A stretch of DNA of 64,000 bases from the IMG/VR virus record IMGVR_UViG_3300034062_004313, positions 91,875-155,874 of that record; one strand, 5' to 3'. The translations under genes were made by a program, and so were the position numbers. Below the pieces are notes generated by a model. That model was not told the DNA's origin, searched no databases, and saw only the letters and a list, made by a program, of their open reading frames with translations. Shown here in pieces: positions 2,708 to 22,587 of the stretch. The DNA is from a virus. How positions within the stretch are numbered: the stretch's first letter is position 1; every line of letters begins with the position of its first letter.

Positions 2708-3853
2708 ATGCAAACAGAAAAAGCTGCATATGATGATTTCTTCGGATTGAATGATATTCCTACCGAAGATGTGATTATTCAGAAAGACAATAATTTTAGC
2801 ACTACAGGAAATGGAGATTTTGATATTCTAAATCCATTAGAAAAAAAAGAAGAAGTTATTGTAGAAAAGAAAGAACAGAATCAAGAAGAAGTTGATATTC
2901 TTGAAAGTGATAAAAAAGAAGAAAAAGAACAAGAAGATATTACAAATATTGTAAACTTCTTTCAAGAAAGGGTTAAGAAGGGAATATTTTCGAATCTTGT
3001 TGATGAAGAAGGAAATGATGTAACGCTATCTAAAGTTGAAGATATTGATAGTTTCTTAGAAGCAAACTTTAATTACAGAGTAGAAAAGGAAAAAGAAACT
3101 CTTGAAACAACTTGGTACGAAACAAAAAGTCCAGCATGGAAAGCAGTTGCTCAATATGCTGATTACGTTCAAGACCCAACACAACTTATTCCATTCCTTC
3201 AAGGTGTTAATAACATAATGAACATTTCTGAAGTGGATGAAACCACAATAGAAGGAGCAGAAAGCATTGTAAGATTTAAAATGCAAGCTTCTGGAGATGA
3301 TGAAGAAACTATAGAAGAACAGATTAAGATTCTTAAAGATTCAGATAAAATTGTTGATATAGCAAAAAGATATAAACCTGCATTAGTTCAGAGTGAAACT
3401 CAAAGACTCTCACAAATGCAAGAAAAAGCTAAAAAGGACCAAGACCAATATATTGAATCCGTTAGAGCCTATGAAAAGTTAGCTATAGAAAATATTGAAA
3501 AGCCTTTATTTGGAGAGAAATTAAATCAAGAAGAGAAAGCAATTATATATGATATGATTGCTATCCCAAATCAAGAACTAGGTGGATACGCTATATTTTC
3601 AGCAATAGATGATTTGTATGAAAAGCAAGACATGGAAACCCTTAGAGAAATAGCTCTTCTAATAGCAAATAAACAAAAATTCTACACTTATGCTTCAAAA
3701 GCTGCAACAGTTAAAACAGCAGCAGATTTGCAAAGAAAGCTTAGAGTACAATTAGAAAGTGATAAAAAAAGTTCATCGAAAGATGACCCTGAAATAACAA
3801 ATGTAAAAGCCCCTACATATAAACAACAAGGCAAGCCGAGATTCGGATTTTAA
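2708..3853 (+). CDS. Acidic scaffold-like capsid assembly protein
   Basis: Very E/D-rich and helical; lies between portal and major capsid genes. Confidence 0.6.
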   Translation: MQTEKAAYDDFFGLNDIPTEDVIIQKDNNFSTTGNGDFDILNPLEKKEEVIVEKKEQNQEEVDILESDKKEEKEQEDITNIVNFFQERVKKGIFSNLVDEEGNDVTLSKVEDIDSFLEANFNYRVEKEKETLETTWYETKSPAWKAVAQYADYVQDPTQLIPFLQGVNNIMNISEVDETTIEGAESIVRFKMQASGDDEETIEEQIKILKDSDKIVDIAKRYKPALVQSETQRLSQMQEKAKKDQDQYIESVRAYEKLAIENIEKPLFGEKLNQEEKAIIYDMIAIPNQELGGYAIFSAIDDLYEKQDMETLREIALLIANKQKFYTYASKAATVKTAADLQRKLRVQLESDKKSSSKDDPEITNVKAPTYKQQGKPRFGF

Positions 3854-3866
3854 AAATTGAAATAAA

Positions 3867-5570
3867 ATGATAAACAACAAAGTAGGACTTGGGAGTTTAG
3901 GTCATCCCGGTATTTTTATCGGTCAGACACGAGTGAAGGGTTTGACAAATCACCTAGATATCCCTTATGTAACAGCACTCGAAGGTGCTCAAACCGACAA
4001 ATTAGACTTTGGTGTGCTTGATTTGTGGGCACTTAAACAAAGAACTGATTCCCCACTTCTATCTTTAGCAGTGGAAAACGCTCAGATTATCTATACTGAT
4101 GCGGATTATTACACATTCGAACTTCCAAGTGCAGCAGAAGGAGTTACAAGACTTATTTCTGGTGGATTGGATAGAGACAAATTTGGTATGGATGGAGAAG
4201 AAATTCCATTCATTGTATCAAGGAGAGATTTATCTCCGGGTGCTATGTTCAAATTTGACTTAACTTCTCCTGTAATGTTCAAAGTGGTAAATAGAATTCC
4301 TGAACAAGTAGGTGAACATTATAGAGTGTGGGCAAGTCTTGTTACAAATGCTCAAGTTCCATATGTAACTAAAGCGGAATTTATTCCTCAAAGGCAAATT
4401 ATAAAACTTGCTGATACAAGAGGATTGGATTTCTCTGCTCATGAATCAACTTGGGGTGTATCAGGTGTTCCTTCATTAATGAAGTTTAAGAACTACTTGA
4501 CAAATGTAAAACTTCAACAAGCTTATAGAGTTACTGAAGGTGCTGTAGAAATGTTAAATCACGAAACAAGATTTGACTCTGCACAACTTAAAGGAATGGA
4601 GAACATGCTTTTGAAATTCTACTCTGTAAGAGGTATTGCTGATAACAAAGTGATTAATATGAATACTGCTGCTCCTCAAGATAGAGAGCGTTATATGCAG
4701 CAAATTCAAGATTCAAGAGTTAAAGGATTGGGTCATAGTGCTATGGTTTCTTTCTTAGATAACGTAGCTATTAATCTTATGCTTCAACAAAATAACAATC
4801 TTGGTATATGGGGTCCAGCAGCTAATAGTTTAGTAGATGGATATGACAGTACAAGATTGGCTCCGGGTGTATGGTTCCAATTAGACCAAGCTGGTTACAA
4901 AACTACTTATGACATTGGTACTTTTGACTTAAATGTTCTTGGAGATGCTATTAAGGACTACGAATTTGGAAAGGTTGAAATGAGAGAATCTGTTTCTACT
5001 AATGTATATGTAATTAGAACTGGTAGAGGTGGACAAGAGATTATATTTGATGCTTTCTTAAAAGCTGGATTCGATATTCCTGCTCAAGTTCAAAATACTG
5101 ACCACGGATTCCTAAGAGGTGATGCAAATAATCTTGTACATAGAGCAGCAAGAATAGTAGAGTTCCAATTGAAAACTATTGGTATACTAAGAGTAGAATG
5201 GGAACCCGGTTTTGACCCTGTAACAGCAGATGAAATTGTAAACCCAATCTTAGCAAGTGGTTACAGACTTTCTTCTTACACTATGTTGATTGAAGATTAT
5301 AACACTTCAGGTGATAATATTGCAATCATTAGAAAGAAAAGCAATAGTAAAATCTCTATGAGAGTTACTAATGGTACTGCTTGTCACCCTATATTCAGTG
5401 GTTCTACAAGTATAGCTGGACAAAATGTTATGTATCATAATGCTGATGATGATTTGAATGGTTACAAAGTTAAGTTTAGTGGTACTGCTGACACTATGAT
5501 AGTGAAAGACCCTACAAAACTTTTGAAGTTAGTTCCGAACAACCCTAAATTAGGTCGCGCAAATTTATGA
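3867..5570 (+). CDS. Major capsid protein
   Basis: 567 aa, crAss synteny, TGRGG motif and C-terminal VKDPTK motif typical of crAss-like capsid proteins. Confidence 0.85.
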   Translation: MINNKVGLGSLGHPGIFIGQTRVKGLTNHLDIPYVTALEGAQTDKLDFGVLDLWALKQRTDSPLLSLAVENAQIIYTDADYYTFELPSAAEGVTRLISGGLDRDKFGMDGEEIPFIVSRRDLSPGAMFKFDLTSPVMFKVVNRIPEQVGEHYRVWASLVTNAQVPYVTKAEFIPQRQIIKLADTRGLDFSAHESTWGVSGVPSLMKFKNYLTNVKLQQAYRVTEGAVEMLNHETRFDSAQLKGMENMLLKFYSVRGIADNKVINMNTAAPQDRERYMQQIQDSRVKGLGHSAMVSFLDNVAINLMLQQNNNLGIWGPAANSLVDGYDSTRLAPGVWFQLDQAGYKTTYDIGTFDLNVLGDAIKDYEFGKVEMRESVSTNVYVIRTGRGGQEIIFDAFLKAGFDIPAQVQNTDHGFLRGDANNLVHRAARIVEFQLKTIGILRVEWEPGFDPVTADEIVNPILASGYRLSSYTMLIEDYNTSGDNIAIIRKKSNSKISMRVTNGTACHPIFSGSTSIAGQNVMYHNADDDLNGYKVKFSGTADTMIVKDPTKLLKLVPNNPKLGRANL

Positions 5571-13710: not shown

Positions 13711-13791
13711 ATGAAATACGTAGTAACACATACAACATGTCCACAGTGGTTTACACCGACAATATCGGGAGGGGCTTTGTATGTATACTAA
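13711..13791 (+). CDS. Attenuator leader peptide 1, MKYVVTHTTCPQWFTPTISGGALYVY
   Basis: 12-codon run containing only T/H/C/P/Q/W/F, matching the downstream tRNAs; overlaps the antiterminator strand. Confidence 0.9.
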   Translation: MKYVVTHTTCPQWFTPTISGGALYVY

Positions 13792-13813
13792 GAAATAGCT
13801 GTGTAGTAACATC

Positions 13814-13845
13814 AACCCTCTGAGAAATCGGAGGGTTTTTTATTT
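13814..13845 (+). terminator. Attenuator terminator 1
   Basis: aaccctctga-gaaa-tcggagggtt followed by tttt, directly before tRNA-Pro. Confidence 0.9.
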
Positions 13846-13939
13846 CTAGTTGTGGACGAGAGGTTTATGTCATTAGTCTTGGAAACTAATATCTGCACAC
13901 AGATGGTGTGGGTCAAGGGTTCGACTCCCTTCAACTAGA
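13846..13939 (+). tRNA. tRNA-Pro(UGG) with long variable arm
   Basis: Acceptor ctagttg/caactag; anticodon arm ttagt-ctTGGaa-actaa; T arm aaggg-ttcgact-ccctt. Confidence 0.85.
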
Positions 13940-13949
13940 CTTTTAATTT

Positions 13950-14022
13950 GCCTTACGAAGCTTTTATGGATGAAGTGTACTCTTGTAAAGTACGGAACTG
14001 GACTCGATTTCCAGCTAAGGCT
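13950..14022 (+). tRNA. tRNA-Thr(UGU)
   Basis: gtact-ctTGTaa-agtac; acceptor gcctta/taaggc. Confidence 0.85.
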
Positions 14023-14028
14023 CAAATT

Positions 14029-14101
14029 GGAGAAGAAGCTAACTTGGTAGAAGCGTTAGACTGAAAATCTAAAGGAGTTGGTCCGAAACCAACCTTCTCC
14101 G
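14029..14101 (+). tRNA. tRNA-Phe(GAA)
   Basis: ggagaag/cttctcc; ttaga-ctGAAaa-tctaa. Confidence 0.9.
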
Positions 14102-14103
14102 CT

Positions 14104-14178
14104 AAATACTTAATGAAACAATAAAGGAACAAAGGGGTCCGGGTAGAAATACGTTAGCGCCCATTGATTTAAGTATTT
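14104..14178 (+). ncRNA. Unidentified structured element inside the tRNA operon
   Basis: 10-bp closing stem aaatacttaa/ttaagtattt; inner caat/attg and gggt/gccc. Confidence 0.4.
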
Positions 14179-14183
14179 TTTAT

Positions 14184-14255
14184 TCCTATGTGGTGTAATG
14201 TAACATCCACGCCTTTGAAGCGTTGAGATTGGTGGTTCAAGTCCATCTATAGGAA
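14184..14255 (+). tRNA. tRNA-Gln(UUG)
   Basis: tcctatg/tatagga; acgc-ctTTGaa-gcgt. Confidence 0.85.
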
Positions 14256-14257
14256 CT

Positions 14258-14332
14258 GTCTAAGTGTTCTGACTGGATTCAGATGAATGACTGTGAATTA
14301 TTCAAAAAGGGTTCGAATCCCACTTAGACCCA
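14258..14332 (+). tRNA. tRNA-His(GUG)
   Basis: gtctaag/cttagac plus CCA; gaatga-ctGTGaa-ttattc; short T stem. Confidence 0.8.
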
Positions 14333-14336
14333 ATAT

Positions 14337-14409
14337 ATAGGTACTCATGGCTGGCGTGATAAACAATCTCCAAAATTGTGATTTGTTGAATCGTTCTCAA
14401 CTACCTATG
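14337..14409 (+). tRNA. tRNA-Trp(CCA)
   Basis: ataggta/tacctat, G73; acaat-ctCCAaa-attgt; divergent T loop. Confidence 0.8.
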
Positions 14410-14465
14410 CTTTATAGGTCTATATACCTATATTTATAGATTATAGGTTTTAAAGGCTATAATTT

Positions 14466-14541
14466 GTCCAGATACCTAATATTGATTTTGGGATAGGTCT
14501 GCAACACCTATTAAATATCGGTTTGATTCCGATTCTGGACT
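14466..14541 (+). tRNA. tRNA-Cys(GCA)
   Basis: gtccaga/tctggac, U73; taggt-ctGCAac-accta. Confidence 0.85.
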
Positions 14542-14555
14542 CTATTAAAAATAAA

Positions 14556-14587
14556 TTTTTTTATTTGAAAAAGATTTCGTATATTTG
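14556..14587 (+). promoter_or_regulatory. Bacteroidota-type promoter of tRNA operon 2
   Basis: -7 box TAtaTTTG at 14580-14587. Confidence 0.7.
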
Positions 14588-14612
14588 CTGTATAAATAAT
14601 AAACATTCAACA

Positions 14613-14693
14613 ATGCAACTTATAAATATGATAGTGGATAACGGTATTGGAGCAAACGAGAAGTTTGGCTTCAGGTATTCTATTGTCGTATAA
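14613..14693 (+). CDS. Attenuator leader peptide 2, MQLINMIVDNGIGANEKFGFRYSIVV
   Basis: 14-codon run containing only I/N/M/V/D/G/A/E/K, matching the downstream tRNAs. Confidence 0.9.
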   Translation: MQLINMIVDNGIGANEKFGFRYSIVV

Positions 14694-14714
14694 TTACTTA
14701 CTAACCCGATAAAG

Positions 14715-14745
14715 AATCCTGAGGCCCATCGCTTCGGGATTTTTT
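14715..14745 (+). terminator. Attenuator terminator 2
   Basis: aatcctgaggc-ccatc-gcttcgggatt followed by tttt, before tRNA-Lys. Confidence 0.9.
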
Positions 14746-14749
14746 GTTT

Positions 14750-14824
14750 AATCTCGTAGCAAAATGTGGCTTTGCTTCAGCCTTTTAAGCTGACTAAAAA
14801 TGGGTTCGACTCCCATCGGGATTA
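14750..14824 (+). tRNA. tRNA-Lys(UUU)
   Basis: tcagc-ctTTTaa-gctga; atggg-ttcgact-cccat. Confidence 0.9.
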
Positions 14825-14830
14825 CTAAAT

Positions 14831-14903
14831 GGCTCTTTAGCTCAGTGGTAGAGCTTCGTTTTTACATGACGAGAAAGCACTTGTCCGATTCAAGTAAGAG
14901 CTA
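14831..14903 (+). tRNA. tRNA-Val(UAC)
   Basis: ggctctt/aagagct; tcgtt-ttTACat-gacga. Confidence 0.85.
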
Positions 14904-14904
14904 C

Positions 14905-15234
14905 ATGAAATATATATTAGGAATACTGTTCTTATTAATTATAGGAACAGCAACAAAAACAGGAATTGCAAGTTATTATCATAACAAGTTTCAAGGAAGG
15001 AAAACTGCTAGTGGTGAATTATATGATAAACATAAATTAACAGCAGCTTCTAATCAATATAAACTTGGTGATAGTGTAAGAGTAACAAATACTAAGAATG
15101 GTAAAAGTGTAAATGTTACAGTAAATGACCGTATGGCTAATAATGGAAGACTAATTGATTTAAGTAGAAGTGCTGCTGATAGTCTTGGTTTTATTAAGGA
15201 TGGTTTAGTTGTAGTTAAAGTTAGTATATTATAA
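14905..15234 (+). CDS. rlpA: RlpA-like DPBB lytic transglycosylase with N-terminal signal/TM segment
   Basis: GIASYY...GRKTASGE.YD...LTAA...VRVTN..NGKSV.V.VNDR...IDLSRSAA motif set; start moved downstream of tRNA-Val. Confidence 0.85.
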   Translation: MKYILGILFLLIIGTATKTGIASYYHNKFQGRKTASGELYDKHKLTAASNQYKLGDSVRVTNTKNGKSVNVTVNDRMANNGRLIDLSRSAADSLGFIKDGLVVVKVSIL

Positions 15235-15239
15235 ATATC

Positions 15240-15313
15240 TGTTTTGTAGCTCAGTGGCCTAGAGCGTGAAGCTGTTAACTTCAGGGTCGTGGGTTCGAAT
15301 CCCATCAGGACAG
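15240..15313 (+). tRNA. tRNA-Asn(GUU)
   Basis: tgaag-ctGTTaa-cttca; G73. Confidence 0.92.
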
Positions 15314-15318
15314 CATAT

Positions 15319-15403
15319 TGTGGGATGGTGTAATTGGTAACACGCAAGGCTCATAACCTTGAGACAGAAAATGCTAGCAAGGGTTCGAATCCCTTTCCCG
15401 CAA
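15319..15403 (+). tRNA. tRNA-Met(CAU), initiator-like body, extended variable loop
   Basis: tgtggga/tcccgca; caagg-ctCATaa-ccttg. Confidence 0.85.
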
Positions 15404-15408
15404 CACAA

Positions 15409-15481
15409 GCAGTATAGGCAGATTGGCTTATGCACCTCACTTCCAATGAGGACATGGTGGGTTCGATTCCTACATGCTGCA
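15409..15481 (+). tRNA. tRNA-Gly(UCC)
   Basis: gcagtat/atgctgc; cctca-ctTCCaa-tgagg. Confidence 0.9.
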
Positions 15482-15528
15482 CAAAAATTATATTATGAAA
15501 AATTCTTTAAAAGAAGGTGAAGAGATAT

Positions 15529-15601
15529 ACTCTCATCTTCTAGTTGGTCAGGATAACACACTTTCAATGTGTTGACACGGGTTCAAGCCCCGTTGGGAGT
15601 G
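15529..15601 (+). tRNA. tRNA-Glu(UUC)
   Basis: actctca/tgggagt; acaca-ctTTCaa-tgtgt. Confidence 0.9.
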
Positions 15602-15611
15602 CTTTAAAAAT

Positions 15612-15685
15612 GGTAGATGGGTCTGCTGGATGAAGATGTCGGTCTGTCGAACCGAAGATGATGGGTTTGAATCCCATATCTACCG
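15612..15685 (+). tRNA. tRNA-Asp(GUC)
   Basis: ggtagat/atctacc, G73; tcggt-ctGTCga-accga. Confidence 0.9.
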
Positions 15686-15690
15686 CATTA

Positions 15691-15765
15691 GGACTTGTAG
15701 CCAAGTTGGTAAAGGCCCTTGACTCATAATCAAGAGATGCAATGGTTCGAGACCATTCAAGTCCA
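15691..15765 (+). tRNA. tRNA(CAU), probably Ile2 (lysidine); elongator Met possible
   Basis: ggacttg/caagtcc; cttga-ctCATaa-tcaag; leader 2 contains two ATA codons. Confidence 0.8.
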
Positions 15766-15770
15766 CATAT

Positions 15771-15842
15771 AGGAATATAGTAGAAGGGTTATCACAATTG
15801 ACTGATACTCAATTAATATAGGTTCGAATCCTATTGTTCCTA
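15771..15842 (+). tRNA. tRNA-Ile(GAU)
   Basis: aggaata/tgttcct; attga-ctGATac-tcaat. Confidence 0.88.
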
Positions 15843-15847
15843 CATTT

Positions 15848-15920
15848 GGGGATAAAGCTCTAGCGGATGAGCATCTGCCTTGCACGTAGAAGGTTACGAT
15901 TTCGAGTGTCGTTATCTCCA
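15848..15920 (+). tRNA. tRNA-Ala(UGC)
   Basis: G3.U70 identity pair; tctgc-ctTGCac-gtaga. Confidence 0.9.
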
Positions 15921-15942
15921 CATAGGGGTTCGGAAAATAATT

Positions 15943-15980
15943 AGCTACATCTCTTTATTAATAAGGGTTGTAGCTTTTTT
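15943..15980 (+). terminator. Terminator ending tRNA operon 2
   Basis: agctaca...tgtagct followed by a U tract. Confidence 0.7.
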
Positions 15981-16056
15981 ATTGTCTCAAATATTGTAAT
16001 AATTTGCGACATAATTTATTTTTTGTCAGGTTATAACCTTTCTTTATCTTTGTTTT

Positions 16057-16224
16057 ATGAATTGGCATATACTACCTGTAAATGATATAGAATATCATGA
16101 AGAATCTACCACTTGTAAGTGTGAACCACAAGTAGAATTTATAGAAGGAGATATGCTAATTATACAAAACTCTTTTGATGGTAGAGAAGGAGTTGAATGG
16201 GTAAATGAAATTTTAAATAAATAA
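16057..16224 (+). CDS. Small acidic protein, 55 aa (MNWHILPVNDIEYHEESTTCKCEP...DGRE), absent from the ORF track
   Basis: Has its own promoter TTTG-N19-TAtcTTTG; His/Cys pattern suggests metal binding. Confidence 0.7.
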   Translation: MNWHILPVNDIEYHEESTTCKCEPQVEFIEGDMLIIQNSFDGREGVEWVNEILNK

Positions 16225-16256
16225 TTTGGAAAATTCAAAATAATTTCGTATATTTG
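16225..16256 (+). promoter_or_regulatory. Consensus Bacteroidota promoter of tRNA operon 3
   Basis: TTTG-N20-TAtaTTTG. Confidence 0.85.
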
Positions 16257-16260
16257 CTTT

Positions 16261-16329
16261 ATGAAAACATTATCACTATATAGTTCCTCAAGTTATCTCT
16301 TATTAAGAGACAGGGATTGTATTGTGTAA
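16261..16329 (+). CDS. Attenuator leader peptide 3, MKTLSLYSSSSYLLLRDRDCIV
   Basis: 12-codon run containing only L/S/Y, matching the downstream tRNAs. Confidence 0.9.
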   Translation: MKTLSLYSSSSYLLLRDRDCIV

Positions 16330-16357
16330 ATAGCTATAAGCTTTTAGCTCCCCTAAC

Positions 16358-16389
16358 AATCCCTTGTCTTTCCAGATGAGGGATTTTTT
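16358..16389 (+). terminator. Attenuator terminator 3
   Basis: aatcccttgtct-ttcc-agatgagggatt followed by tttt. Confidence 0.9.
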
Positions 16390-16392
16390 ATT

Positions 16393-16465
16393 GGCTCTAT
16401 GACGTAATCGGCAACCGTCTTGGCTTTAGACCCCAAGTTTTCCAGTTCGAATCTGGATAGAGCTA
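16393..16465 (+). tRNA. tRNA-Leu(UAG)-like, lacking the long variable arm
   Basis: ggctcta/tagagct; ttggc-ttTAGac-cccaa; tccag-ttcgaat-ctgga. Confidence 0.7.
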
Positions 16466-16520
16466 CAAATTAGCAGCCCTCTATGGATAATTCTATTGAC
16501 GAATAGAATATGGGCAAAAT

Positions 16521-16603
16521 ATTCCTGTGGTGAAATGGTGAGACACGGCAGACTTAAAATCTGCTACGGAGAAACGTTGCTGGTTCGAATCCAGTCAGGA
16601 ATA
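16521..16603 (+). tRNA. tRNA-Leu(UAA)
   Basis: gcaga-ctTAAaa-tctgc; long variable arm. Confidence 0.92.
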
Positions 16604-16606
16604 CTT

Positions 16607-16691
16607 AGCAGAATGTCAGAGTGGTTTATTGTGATAGTCTTGAAAACTATTGGGTGTAAAAGCTCCTTGGGTTCGAATCCCAATTTTGCTG
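16607..16691 (+). tRNA. tRNA-Ser(UGA)
   Basis: atagt-ctTGAaa-actat; G73; long variable arm. Confidence 0.92.
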
Positions 16692-16695
16692 CAAT

Positions 16696-16784
16696 AGAAG
16701 ATTGTGTGAGTGGCTTAAACAACCAGTTTGCTAAACTGGCGAGGGATTAAAACACCTCCATTGGTTCAAATCCAATATCTTCTG
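16696..16784 (+). tRNA. tRNA-Ser(GCU)
   Basis: ccagt-ttGCTaa-actgg; G73; long variable arm. Confidence 0.92.
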
Positions 16785-16789
16785 CATAT

Positions 16790-16882
16790 TGTGTTGTAAC
16801 GGCAGTAGACTGTAAATCTACTCTGCATAACAAATTGTCGTACTGGTCTCGCAGTAAGAAGGTTCGAATCCTTTCAACACAA
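16790..16882 (+). tRNA. tRNA-Tyr(GUA), D-armless with oversized variable region
   Basis: tgtgttg/caacaca; gtaga-ctGTAaa-tctac; gaagg-ttcgaat-ccttt. Confidence 0.75.
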
Positions 16883-16908
16883 CATTAACTTATTATTAAC
16901 TATAGACA

Positions 16909-17082
16909 TTTGACTATATAAAGTAAATAGTCTATTTTTGTATTGTACAAATTCCCAACCGTCATAGGAGATTTGTATTTAATTAACAATAACTATATAT
17001 TCGATTGATGTAACTTTGTTCTTAGGAACGCAACTTGACGGTTGGGACCCCTTGTACTTAATTGTATGAGGGGATTTTTTTT
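16909..17082 (+). promoter_or_regulatory. Promoter plus structured leader or small RNA ending in a terminator
   Basis: TTTG-N20-TAttTTTG; perfect 12-bp inverted repeat tcccaaccgtca/tgacggttggga; terminator ccccttgtac/gtatgagggg plus U tract. Confidence 0.65.
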
Positions 17083-17084
17083 GC

Positions 17085-17415
17085 AGACATCCGAGGTTTT
17101 TCTTTCCTTCTTTTACGTCCTCCACAAAAATAAAAGAGTGTCATTAAGATAGTATAGTATATTACACTTGGTATATTATATGATAGGATGTAGAAAAATC
17201 AGCAATGTCTAAGGTGACAACTGGACCTGAACGAAATTATCAGCAAAAACTACATTCCTCCGTGAAAAATAAAATCATCTTATAGCTGATAATTATTTGT
17301 AGATGATTGGCAGGACATGGGAATCTTAGGTTGACAATATGTTTATAGGAGTATGTGTTAACTATAAATACATTATCCCAACAGGGGAAGACCTTGTTCA
17401 GGATAGACCCCCTTA
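17085..17415. ncRNA. Candidate structured non-coding RNA
   Basis: No credible ORF; several long-range helices. Confidence 0.4.
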
Positions 17416-17442
17416 TGTAAATTAACAATAAAATGTAAAACT

Positions 17443-17748
17443 ATGAAAAACCACAAAATGACATCATATCAATTCATGATGTTAATGCAAGAATTACCAA
17501 ATCCAATGTATTATGCTAGAAATGGAGCTAATGTAGGATTTAGAGTAAAAGTAGGATATTTAAAGAAGTCCATTGATAATACTCCTACAATATTAATAAA
17601 TCCTAATTCTCAACCTATGAAGATGGCAGAAGTTGAACAGGTAGAATTTGAATTAGTTCCGAACAATACTATTTGGTATTGGCAACCTGTAGAACCAATT
17701 ACTATAATAACATTAGATAAGAAAGAGTACATTAAAAATTGGGAATAA
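17443..17748 (+). CDS. Hypothetical protein
   Basis: ORF on the coding strand. Confidence 0.6.
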   Translation: MKNHKMTSYQFMMLMQELPNPMYYARNGANVGFRVKVGYLKKSIDNTPTILINPNSQPMKMAEVEQVEFELVPNNTIWYWQPVEPITIITLDKKEYIKNWE

Positions 17749-18056
17749 TGAATATAATAAAATGGTATAAAAGAGTATTTAGAATTCTTACTATAGAAGA
17801 ATGTAAAGAATTAGGATTAGTACATTCTCATAATATATATGGTGATAGTATTAATCATTTAAATTGTAGAAGTATTTGGAAAGATGAAAAGGATAGAACA
17901 TATAGGTGTGAAAGTTTAATACCTACTATAGGAGTACTAGATTTATGGATTTTAAAAATGAAAAATCAAGATAAAGTACAACCAATAACTCAAGAAGAAT
18001 ATAATAAAATAAGAGATGAAGAATTTGAAAGGCTCAAGACTTTATATTCGCCTTAA
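17739..18056 (+). CDS. Hypothetical protein
   Basis: ORF overlapping the upstream stop; start may be 17748. Confidence 0.6.
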   Translation: MGIMNIIKWYKRVFRILTIEECKELGLVHSHNIYGDSINHLNCRSIWKDEKDRTYRCESLIPTIGVLDLWILKMKNQDKVQPITQEEYNKIRDEEFERLKTLYSP

Positions 18057-18093
18057 CAAATAATAGTGTAATTTTGGCTTCTAAATAAAAATC

Positions 18094-18414
18094 ATGAAAG
18101 TATTAACAGAAGGACATTATTATGAACTAGAACATTTTGAAAAAGATGAATCGGGTAGTTCAGAAAGTTTACAATTTATCGAAAAGGTTCCAAAAGGTGA
18201 AGGGAAAGTACAAGATTTAGTAACAGTAAATAATGGAACTACAAATGAAGAAGTTCTTAAAGTTCTAATAAATAGAATGAACTATTTACAAGCAAAATTT
18301 CCATGTAGAGAAAATGCTATTGTAATTACAAAACTTGAAGAAAGTCTAATGTGGTTAGAAAAAAGAACTGTTGATAGAATAGCTAGAAATGTAGAAGGTA
18401 AACAATTAAAATAA
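18094..18414 (+). CDS. tad1: Tad1/Acb2-family anti-defence nucleotide-sponge protein
   Basis: G...E.VL.VLI.RM..LQ..FPCRENA..ITKLEESLMWL.KRT.DRI.RNV.G matches the Tad1 helical-hairpin pattern. Confidence 0.75.
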   Translation: MKVLTEGHYYELEHFEKDESGSSESLQFIEKVPKGEGKVQDLVTVNNGTTNEEVLKVLINRMNYLQAKFPCRENAIVITKLEESLMWLEKRTVDRIARNVEGKQLK

Positions 18415-18422
18415 AATAAACT

Positions 18423-18638
18423 ATGAAAAAACAATTATTTACGTATGCTGTATTATTCCATCAGCATGAAGAGAAAGAGGGAAAATTGGAATACAAAGAA
18501 ACACTTATTCTTGTAGAACCAAAAGTGATTTTAGCAAAGAATAGTAATGAAGTAGCATTCAAAGCTACAAGAGACGTACCAGAACAATATGCAGGATTTT
18601 CAGAAAATGTAGAAATTATAGTACGCCCTTTTAAATAG
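18423..18638 (+). CDS. Small phage protein ending in VRPFK
   Basis: 71 aa ORF. Confidence 0.7.
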   Translation: MKKQLFTYAVLFHQHEEKEGKLEYKETLILVEPKVILAKNSNEVAFKATRDVPEQYAGFSENVEIIVRPFK

Positions 18639-18648
18639 CTCCCCCTTA

Positions 18649-18828
18649 ATGTGGGATAGTGGGAGCAAAGGAGTATGGGAACAATTAGTAGACCCACCTA
18701 AATATAAAAGTACTTTCCAAAATTATATGGGTACAACTACAAATTTAGTAGGACAAGCAATAAACACTTTGACAACAGGAACATCAATATCATATAACAT
18801 GGCAGATGCAATGTCATTCACAAATTAA
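18649..18828 (+). CDS. 59 aa T/S/N-rich ORF, or frameshift extension of the upstream gene
   Basis: The +1 frame is open across the upstream stop. Confidence 0.45.
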   Translation: MWDSGSKGVWEQLVDPPKYKSTFQNYMGTTTNLVGQAINTLTTGTSISYNMADAMSFTN

Positions 18829-18837
18829 AATCAAATT

Positions 18838-19002
18838 ATGAAAACACTAACAAATCTATTTACAAGCAACCCATCTTACATGAAATGGGGTAATGAAAGA
18901 ATTGCAAAAAGAACAGGGCTGAAACCAAAAACAGTAGAGAAATTCAAAAAGAATCCCTTGTATAAGATAATGAAAACCCAATATCTTAACGAGATTAATT
19001 AG
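18838..19002 (+). CDS. Small basic HTH-like protein, 54 aa, absent from the ORF track
   Basis: GNERIAKRTGLKPKTVEKF resembles a helix-turn-helix. Confidence 0.6.
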   Translation: MKTLTNLFTSNPSYMKWGNERIAKRTGLKPKTVEKFKKNPLYKIMKTQYLNEIN

Positions 19003-19012
19003 GAAATGTCGC

Positions 19013-19048
19013 AAAAAAGGCGTATATTGTTATGATATGCGCTTTTTT
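19013..19048 (+). terminator. Terminator overlapping a putative promoter
   Basis: gcgtatat/atatgcgc stem flanked by A6 and T6. Confidence 0.65.
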
Positions 19049-19052
19049 ATTT

Positions 19053-19124
19053 GGCTCCTTAGTTAAATGGATATAACCGCAGAATTCTAATCTGCATTTG
19101 GGAGTTCGATTCTCTCAGGGGCTA
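19053..19124 (+). tRNA. tRNA-Arg(UCU)
   Basis: ggctcct/aggggct; gcaga-atTCTaa-tctgc. Confidence 0.9.
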
Positions 19125-19144
19125 CGAAATCTTAAAAATAAATT

Positions 19145-21739: not shown

Positions 21740-22587
21740 TGAACAATAAAATTATAGATTATATACCATATTCTGAATTGATGTCTCTTGTAAAACAAGA
21801 GATTAAATCATATGATAGTCAAGGATATATAAATGATGGAGACCTTATTCCAACGGTGATGTATTGCAATGAAAAGCTTGGAATACATATACATGAAGTT
21901 AAACAGGCTATAATTGAAATAAAGAACAATAAAGGAGATTTACCTAAAGATTTCCATAAAGTGTTTTACATGGCTGCTTTATCTATGACTAATACTACAG
22001 TAACAAATTGGACAAATCCTTGGGACAATAGTAAAGACAGAACAGTAACCTATGATGCAGATTTTAAAAGAGGATGTATAGGATGTGAAGATAATGTTAC
22101 AGTGATATATAAGAAATCAGGAGTTGACATAACACAATCTTATTATAATTGGCAAGATTTAAAATTAAGCAATGGTCAATATGCTTATATAGGATGTCCA
22201 AATATTAATAGTAAGTCGAAGAATCAAGTGGATATTGATATAGAGAATGGAGAGATTACAACAGGATTTAGAACTGGAGAAATATATATGATGTATGTAG
22301 CAAATATGCTAAGTGAAGAAGGTGAGATACTTATCCCTTTCCATCCACTTATAACTCCTTGGTATGTATGGAGTTGTGTAGACCAAGTTATTAAATCCAT
22401 GATATTTGATACAGATGAAGATTTGAATAAGTTAAAAATGCAAAGAGAATTAGCACAGGATGAAAAGGATAAATCATGGATAACATCTTATAATTTTGCA
22501 AATACAAAAGAGTTTATGGCTTGGCAACAAGACCAAAAGAAGCAACAACTTTCTTGGTGGAAGAGATGGTTTAGAATTATTCAATAA
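21739..22587 (+). CDS. Tail tubular / ring protein
   Basis: Directly before the muzzle gene; LPKDF and GEILIP motifs. Confidence 0.6.
   Translation: MNNKIIDYIPYSELMSLVKQEIKSYDSQGYINDGDLIPTVMYCNEKLGIHIHEVKQAIIEIKNNKGDLPKDFHKVFYMAALSMTNTTVTNWTNPWDNSKDRTVTYDADFKRGCIGCEDNVTVIYKKSGVDITQSYYNWQDLKLSNGQYAYIGCPNINSKSKNQVDIDIENGEITTGFRTGEIYMMYVANMLSEEGEILIPFHPLITPWYVWSCVDQVIKSMIFDTDEDLNKLKMQRELAQDEKDKSWITSYNFANTKEFMAWQQDQKKQQLSWWKRWFRIIQ

Follow-up and report, generated by a model that had tools for sequence, protein, structure and literature searches.

A conserved family of probable phage tRNA-Tyr genes with apparently rewired cloverleaf connectivity

A tyrosine-type element at the end of a phage tRNA block

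The window analysed here covers the final 64 kb of an IMG/VR virus record that is 155,874 bp long and has a G+C content of ~30%. An ORF at 22587–27110 matches the crassvirus muzzle protein PF25731 with 64 bits, and there is a weak match to a ring protein. On the basis of these two matches, we assign the source virus to the Crassvirales phages. ARAGORN and Rfam place 18–19 tRNAs across positions 13846–19125 of the window, with no tRNA-Tyr among them, and ARAGORN calls no tRNA-Tyr on the entire 155,874-bp genome. The element described here occupies 16790–16882 on the plus strand, which is also the strand of the ORF and the hairpins that flank its block, and its 5ʹ end is 4 nt past tRNA-Ser(GCU). 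It is the final gene of a block that runs Leu(UAG), Leu(UAA), Ser(UGA), Ser(GCU) and candidate Tyr, in which the preceding isoacceptors are of the class II type.

Upstream of this block lies a 22-codon ORF (16261–16329; MKTLSLYSSSSYLLLRDRDCIV) that is rich in Leu, Ser and Tyr and includes a stretch of 12 codons drawn from Leu, Ser and Tyr codons only. A terminator-like hairpin is found between the ORF and the block (16358–16385), and a second one, with a T run, lies downstream of the candidate tRNA-Tyr, at the end of the block (17048–17073). Tyr codons had been noted in an upstream short ORF when this DNA was first described, and they are indeed present in this one, with the terminator-like hairpin following. 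If the ORF is an attenuation-type leader, then the leader would count the fifth gene of the block as a tRNA-Tyr.

Every tRNA block in the window has a terminator-like hairpin upstream, and two of the blocks are also preceded by a short ORF (16261–16385; 13711–13837; 14686–14748). The short ORF ahead of the first tRNA block reads MKYVVTHTTCPQWFTPTISGGALYVY, and the hairpin at 14686–14748 gives a weak Thr_leader-like match. Judged by sequence, the tRNA operons look like systems of leader-peptide attenuation, which would be unusual. Within the array, tRNA-Pro(UGG) (13846–13940) is 95 nt long with a 9-bp extra arm, tRNA-Met(CAU) (15319–15404) is 86 nt long with a variable loop of 16 nt, and the tRNA with the Leu anticodon UAG (16393–16466) is 74 nt long, a class I length. 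A weak tRNA-like gene at 14258–14330 on the plus strand, missed by ARAGORN, has the loop CUGUGAA, corresponding to His(GUG), and scores 27.5 bits with the Rfam tRNA model RF00005, for which the cut-off is 29. The phage may have more tRNAs that are not called by standard tools; Thr and Trp are still absent.

The candidate tRNA-Tyr shows several hallmarks of tRNA: an acceptor stem of 7 bp plus a discriminator, an anticodon stem of 5 bp whose 7-nt loop includes U33, and a T stem of 5 bp that closes a GTTCRA-type loop. The acceptor stem, TGTGTTG/CAACACA (16790–16796 with 16875–16881), forms seven of seven pairs, and both sides have changed at all seven across the 110 homologues described below. 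The discriminator, A73 (16882), is an A in at least 90% of the homologues, and no CCA is encoded. The anticodon stem, GTAGA/TCTAC (16805–16809 and 16817–16821; 5 bp), closes the loop CTGTAAA (CUGUAAA), with the Tyr anticodon GTA (GUA) at 16812–16814. The T arm, GAAGG-TTCGAAT-CCTTT (16858–16874), combines a 5-bp stem that includes one G-U pair with the canonical loop UUCGAAU. GUA, A73 and a base-paired long variable arm, the hallmarks of class II tRNA-Tyr, are likewise present. G1-C72 is not: the first pair of the window copy is U1-A72, and in the family of 110 sequences it is GC in 80, CG in 18, UA in 10 and AU in 2. Also missing is the D hairpin between positions 9 and 26, a region that holds 8 nt in all.

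These 8 nt (TAACGGCA; RNA UAACGGCA; 16797–16804) link the acceptor stem to the anticodon stem. They begin with U8 and A9 (16797–16798), which are invariant in 110 sequences, including those fetched with the 5ʹ half unconstrained. The following ACGGC (16799–16803) is one strand of what we call helix 2, and a single nucleotide, 16804, equivalent to position 26, lies between it and the anticodon stem. On the other side, 36 nt (16822–16857) separate the anticodon stem from the T stem. Here CUGC (16823–16826), the 5ʹ side of the variable-arm stem, pairs with GCAG (16851–16854), its 3ʹ side, to give helix 4. From the top of helix 4, a linker (16827–16836) leads back to the base of helix 2; it contains an invariant AAAU, which is found also in members fetched by patterns that left the AAAU unconstrained. 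The second strand of helix 2, GUCGU (16837–16841), comes next, so that helix 4 crosses helix 2. It is followed by the equivalent of a D loop, A-C-U-G-G-UCUC (16842–16850), of which A, U, G and G are kept family-wide; the insert reads TACTGGT at 16841–16847. Three unpaired nucleotides, UAA (16855–16857), of which UA-R is conserved, precede the T stem. Nucleotides 16804 and 16822 are possible non-Watson-Crick partners: columns 15 and 33 of a 44-sequence alignment (A1) partly co-vary, with G opposite U or C, U opposite A, and A opposite C or U. Direct reading of the sequence thus confirms what the preliminary description had said of the general layout, namely a short (8 nt) link between the acceptor and anticodon stems, a variable region of ~35 nt, perfect acceptor and anticodon stems, and an intact T stem, the last with one G-U pair.

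How do standard tRNA models treat such an element? In a search of 301 nt with lax filters, RF00005 aligns to it end to end with 34.6 bits (gathering threshold 29; E = 8e-6); 5 nt replace the 15 expected D-arm positions, and the variable region carries an insertion of 33 nt. The match is missing from the whole-window scan at the gathering threshold and from an E-value scan of 3.3 kb. ARAGORN misses the element in its standard, intron, pseudogene-threshold and metazoan-mitochondrial settings. A call that ARAGORN makes at the locus in mitochondrial mode is 50 nt long, on the opposite strand and spurious.

Homologues and tyrosine tRNA identity

Homologues were collected with sequence patterns. The first pattern, used on IMG/VR, required a Tyr anticodon loop, a gap of 28–56 nt and a T loop, and nothing else; this yielded 16 loci that share the unusual layout. 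The second required only the insert and the T arm, leaving the 5ʹ half and the anticodon free, and it returned 77 viral contigs from IMG/VR and at least 120 metagenome contigs. In a search of 185,579 prokaryote species, each represented by one genome, this second pattern gave five matches, three of them real members of the family, on MAG contigs with tRNA arrays, and two of them chance matches in coding DNA. Removal of duplicates left 110 distinct sequences from IMG/VR and metagenome contigs, which make up alignment A2. Some columns that appear invariant were set by the search patterns; each half of the molecule was cross-checked only with matches fetched via the other half.

A family covariance model built from 44 sequences separates the family from other tRNAs. 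Members score 58–104 bits, whereas ordinary tRNAs, including ~60 canonical tRNA-Tyr genes, score below ~34 bits, as do the canonical tRNA-Tyr copies that lie beside family members. The window element scores 97 bits with the model built from its homologues and the ordinary tRNAs of the window no more than 26 bits; hence, the element is not a chance match. A pattern that joined TAACNNCA to the anticodon loop found mostly canonical tRNA-Tyr genes with a D loop ending in ...GGTAACCCCAG, which are sub-threshold with the family model and were set aside. A collection pattern that fixed the anticodon stem of the window copy gave no matches, and a blastn search of GenBank phages with the 93-nt element yielded marginal matches only. 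Among the relatives of the window phage that were found through a neighbouring protein (L002–L022; 32–37% identity), there was no match to the family model, and these provide no synteny information.

One contig, L331, has two rearranged copies (3670–3765 and 4019–4114). The copy at L285:879–974 has diverged, with an altered anticodon loop (CAUGAA), and the copy at L312:542–632 is truncated at its 5ʹ end; these two are possibly pseudogenes or further variants. Taken as a whole, the family is a widespread structural variant of tRNA-Tyr that has apparently not been described before.

Every one of the 110 aligned homologues has the anticodon GUA, even though the second search pattern left the anticodon free. 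No canonical tRNA-Tyr is called in the fetched DNA of 71 of 76 loci that carry the element, many of which have 20–25 called tRNAs. Several properties of the sequences speak for a working tRNA-Tyr: the position in a tRNA array, the fixed GUA, U33 and A37/A38, A73, the canonical T loop, acceptor and T domains that are intact and would suit RNase P and the CCA-adding enzyme, and the lack of any other tRNA-Tyr in the genome. We consider it probable that these elements are working phage tRNA-Tyr(GUA) genes that form a conserved family with rewired cloverleaf connectivity. What the sequences show directly is the family, its five helices with their crossing order, the fixed anticodon and the genomic setting; from these we infer that the RNAs would be processed, charged and used in translation, and how they would fold in three dimensions.

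The family includes a cultured model phage. In crAss001 (MH675552), the element (4141–4235) lies between tRNA-Lys and tRNA-Phe, in a stretch of 170 nt that has no annotation, and scores 101 bits with the family model. We found no Tyr among the 23 tRNAs listed in the first 9 kb of this genome, for which the published annotation, made with ARAGORN, reports 25 tRNAs for 17 amino acids (PMC6235969). Among the GenBank records of the crAss001 group, ~31 contain the element, with no feature annotated there, and ~20 independently sequenced crAss001-like isolates have an identical copy. Elsewhere in crAss001 (L214; MH675552.1, 96203–96288, minus strand), the TROVE (Ro60-like) gene gp96 is directly followed, on its downstream side, by an unannotated tRNA-like RNA. 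This is probably a YrlA-type Y RNA, and its 22 bits with the family model reflect generic tRNA likeness only.

What might have selected for rewiring of a phage tRNA-Tyr? Retron-Eco7 PtuAB cleaves the variable loop of E. coli tRNA-Tyr. A phage tRNA-Tyr whose variable loop differs is left uncut and neutralises Retron-Eco7, an effect for which the phage variable loop is needed (PMC12673091). Because of this precedent, tRNA-Tyr and its variable region are a plausible battleground. By analogy, we speculate that rewiring was selected as an escape from nucleases aimed at the host tRNA-Tyr.

The same precedent could be read differently. The element might be a tRNA-like decoy or anti-defence RNA that mimics tRNA-Tyr, binds or saturates a host nuclease or another tRNA-Tyr-binding factor, and is unused on the ribosome. 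Consistent with this, neutralisation of Retron-Eco7 PtuAB by a phage tRNA-Tyr requires the variable loop (PMC12673091, PMC11555353), the variable region, in which PtuAB cuts host tRNA-Tyr, is the most remodelled part of the family, and a canonical tRNA-Tyr co-occurs in four contigs. However, most of the arrays are without any other tRNA-Tyr, and the features for decoding and charging are strictly conserved (an anticodon loop of 7 nt that includes U33 and GUA, A73, the 7-bp acceptor stem and the T loop), whereas a pure decoy would need fewer of them. Moreover, the published phage tRNA-Tyr is itself a working tRNA. We therefore regard an exclusive decoy role as unlikely, though it is the alternative that we take most seriously.

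The four contigs in which a canonical class II tRNA-Tyr and a rearranged one adjoin are L187 (3539–3722), L182 (10875–11220), L194 (10464–10809) and L211 (2248–2552). In these contigs, translation need not depend on the rearranged gene, which might have a second role outside translation; the adjoining pairs also fit a back-up or decoy role. The four pairs should help to trace how the rearrangement arose and to see whether the two forms differ in role.

Helix covariation and the layout of the core

In alignment A2, the five helices pair in 98.2% of 2857 cells, compared with 69% after shuffling of columns and 35–50% when partners are slid by 1–3 columns. The covariation score of the five helices is 0.75, against a comparison value of 0.20, and the 44-sequence set agrees. 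Since the covarying columns were N in every search pattern, the covariation signal was not built in by the searches. When the fully complementary column pairs of A1 are ranked by mutual information, those at the top are exactly the ones proposed here.

Helix 2 (columns 10–14 with 49–53) is paired in 550 of 550 cells across the 110 sequences. Its pair 12:51 alternates between GC (86 sequences) and AU (24), and pair 13:50 occurs as six types (GU 62, UG 16, GC 13, CG 9, AU 5 and UA 5). The innermost pair has changed from C-G to A-U in one extra copy, in L331. Helix 4 (columns 34–37 with 66–69) is paired in 99.1% of cells, and three of its four pairs have changes on both sides: 35:68 is UA in 82 sequences and CG in 27, 36:67 is GC in 88 and CG in 19, and 37:66 is CG in 96, GC in 5 and UA in 2. 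Unaided, RNAalifold, which considers nested structures only, recovers the acceptor, anticodon, helix 4 and T helices, and the minimum-energy fold of the single sequence takes the helix 2 pairing. Helices 2 and 4 cross (the chain order is 10 < 34 < 53 < 66) and hence make a pseudoknot, and the covariation suggests that the two form simultaneously. That the five-helix, pseudoknotted family is real seems to us close to certain.

In alignment A1, there is no clear signal for a Levitt pair of the 15:48 type or for extensions of helix 4. Columns 7 and 62 of A1 (window positions 16796 and 16850) have a mutual information of 0.68 and are complementary in 82% of sequences, a weaker signal than that of the proposed pairs. 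Column 7 is the last 5ʹ base of the acceptor stem and column 62 the base directly before the 3ʹ strand of helix 4; the signal may reflect a tertiary contact or phylogenetic noise.

These data bear on most of what the preliminary description had proposed. The closure of the variable region by CTGC/GCAG is a real, covarying helix, and the TACTGGT that had been called D-loop-like is part of an element conserved across the family. Covariation among homologues, which had been put forward as a check, is found in all five helices. Rather than having normal D arms, the 110 distinct homologues share the odd architecture. With so many homologues and five covarying helices, the tRNA-Tyr-type gene is under selection and not in decay, as had been argued. 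The tentative idea that the insert substitutes for the D arm in three dimensions also gains weight, in that covariation points that way. The label “D-armless”, however, does not stand: a covarying helix of 5 bp joins the insert to five of the eight linker nucleotides. This pairing, which the preliminary description had missed, is the equivalent of a D stem built from two distant segments.

How does this layout relate to that of a canonical tRNA? The simplest description is that it is as if canonical positions 10–21 of a class II tRNA-Tyr, i.e. the 5ʹ strand of the D stem and the D loop, had been moved into the variable loop. Only 16804, resembling position 26, intervenes between ACGGC and the anticodon stem, so ACGGC, as the strand that runs towards the anticodon, would be stacked onto the anticodon stem where 22–25 lie in a canonical tRNA. 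With ACGGC in that place, its partner GUCGU, running away from the anticodon, would take the place of canonical 10–13. We propose that A-C-U-G-G-UCUC supplies the counterparts of A14, 15, 16/17, G18, G19 and the 20-region, with the tertiary roles that these would imply. The spacing from the A to the GG in this element is 2 nt, and it is likewise 2 nt in E. coli tRNA-Tyr; A14, 15, 16 and G18-G19 of class II tRNA-Tyr are spaced in this way. We further propose that 16797–16798 are the counterparts of canonical U8 and, more tentatively, A21. The invariant U8 and A9 would run from the acceptor stem to the top of helix 2, the usual site of the U8-A14 pair and the stacked A21.

The adjoining canonical gene in L187 allows a direct comparison. 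One nucleotide separates helix 4 from the anticodon stem and three separate it from the T stem, a layout that corresponds one to one to that of the canonical tRNA-Tyr. The transposed segment in L187 (GUCGU-AUUGGCAC) resembles the canonical 5ʹ D strand and D loop (GCA-UAGUGGCAAU). The stack of the anticodon stem (5), a 26:44-like layer (1) and helix 2 (5) amounts to 11 layers, compared with 10 in a standard tRNA. The extra D-like layer (5 bp plus the possible 26:44-like one) could change the distance from the anticodon to the elbow.

Together, these considerations lead us to propose the following. The acceptor, anticodon and T arms are canonical, and the usual D hairpin is absent. In its stead, ACGGC, 5ʹ of the anticodon stem, would pair with GUCGU inside the ~24-nt loop of a class II variable arm, the A-N-U-G-G after GUCGU would stand in for the D loop, and the crossing of helix 2 with CUGC/GCAG would produce a pseudoknot. 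With U8, A14, G18, G19, an A21-like residue and the T loop all retained, the core would support a normal L shape, which host RNase P, CCA-adding enzyme, TyrRS, EF-Tu and the ribosome could presumably use. The tRNA would then supply Tyr decoding to the phage, whose tRNA arrays are otherwise mostly without tRNA-Tyr.

Could helices 2 and 4 instead be mutually exclusive conformations of a switch, with no simultaneous pseudoknot? The helices cross, folding restricted to nested structures takes one or the other, and covariation alone cannot show simultaneity. However, the loops between the strands are long (10–11 nt and 8–12 nt), such that both helices could form at once, and both are maintained at nearly 100%. 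Without helix 2, the G18/G19-like element would be left unpositioned; without helix 4, there would be no reason for the conserved junction lengths of class II tRNA-Tyr. We consider a switch improbable.

It is less probable still that the element lacks a D arm altogether, like certain tRNAs of animal mitochondria, and that the insert is no more than a large floppy variable loop. Viewed as a nested cloverleaf, the element does lack a D hairpin, but the helix between linker and insert is 100% maintained with compensatory changes, and the insert contains the conserved A-N-U-G-G; covariation already contradicts this explanation. We give equally little credence to the insert being an intervening sequence that is excised from a precursor. 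A discrete, helix-closed segment of ~24 nt might suggest as much, but its excision would leave no D-arm equivalent, and it contains the conserved G18/G19-like motif. In addition, the known tRNA introns of bacteria are group I introns, which are >200 nt long and lie in the anticodon loop, and we know of no splicing system for variable-loop inserts in bacteria. Finally, a decaying pseudogene or an assembly artefact, to which the failure of standard tRNA finders might point, has practically no probability given that compensatory changes preserve all 26 pairs in 110 distinct, independently assembled sequences, and given the identical copies in the crAss001-like isolates.

Relation to known tRNAs and implications

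The order of helices in the cloverleaf is among the most conserved features in biology. To our knowledge, the known exceptions lose arms or alter helix lengths, and never re-order strands. The rearranged tRNA-Tyr shares with canonical class II tRNA-Tyr the GUA anticodon, A73, the 7-bp acceptor stem, the 5-bp anticodon and T stems, the T loop and the placement of the variable stem. It differs in having no D hairpin at 9–26, in a variable loop of ~24 nt rather than 3–4 nt, which holds a D-stem strand and a D-loop motif, and in being pseudoknotted.

In the circularly permuted tRNA genes of Cyanidioschyzon merolae, as in the family described here, the order of segments along the gene differs from the canonical one. 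In C. merolae, the mature tRNA becomes canonical again through processing; nothing implies such a step for the phage family, in which the mature RNA itself would keep the new connectivity. A pseudoknot in a tRNA-shaped molecule has a parallel in the tRNA-like structures of plant viruses such as that of TYMV, where it builds the acceptor arm at the 3ʹ end of the genomic RNA. The pseudoknot proposed here is instead in the core of D stem and variable arm, and it belongs to a free-standing gene inside a tRNA array.

The short connector between acceptor and anticodon stems recalls the D-armless mitochondrial tRNAs, e.g. metazoan mt-tRNA-Ser and nematode mt-tRNAs, which have no D stem and no G18/G19 interactions and are short and flexible (PMC7609411). 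In contrast, the members of the rearranged family are longer than normal tRNAs and have a D-stem equivalent, a GG motif and a fully canonical T arm. tRNA-Sec and allo-tRNAs have 8/4, 9/3 or 9/4 acceptor branches and 6-bp D stems (PMC5389517, PMC7609411). They resemble the phage family in their non-standard helix lengths and long variable arms, are largely metagenomic and are in some cases missed by standard tools; they differ in that their cloverleaves remain nested and their D hairpins ordinary. The tRNA-Tyr of T5/SP15-type phages, which resists Retron-Eco7 PtuAB (PMC12673091, PMC11555353), is likewise phage-encoded with a variable region that differs from that of the host, but these tRNAs are canonical cloverleaves with a variable loop that is 5 nt longer.

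A review of natural non-canonical tRNAs, which covers tRNA-Sec, tRNA-Pyl, allo-tRNAs and armless mitochondrial tRNAs, describes no tRNA whose strands are re-ordered or whose core is pseudoknotted, and neither “phage” nor “pseudoknot” appears in its text (PMC7609411). Yutin et al. pointed out that extremely divergent phage tRNAs may escape detection (PMC7886860). Searches of the full-text literature, with coverage of few subscription journals, for pseudoknotted or rearranged tRNAs, phage tRNA-Tyr and crAss tRNAs found no prior description. On balance, the sequences lead us to favour the view that this is the first natural, translationally active tRNA with a permuted mature connectivity, which would combine a pseudoknotted core with an L shape and would be widespread in crAss-like and other large phages, where tRNA finders have missed it.

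What would such a tRNA mean? If the proposal is true, the L shape tolerates a different path of the backbone so long as core residues are kept. The family would be a natural test of the features that RNase P, TyrRS, EF-Tu and the ribosome read in a tRNA, and a new scaffold for the design of orthogonal tRNAs. Since crAss001 and its host can be cultivated, the idea of a rewired tRNA is directly testable. For the phages themselves, tRNA-Tyr would be systematically absent from current annotations, including that of the cultured model gut phage crAss001, and hence counts of the amino acids covered by phage tRNAs would be too low.
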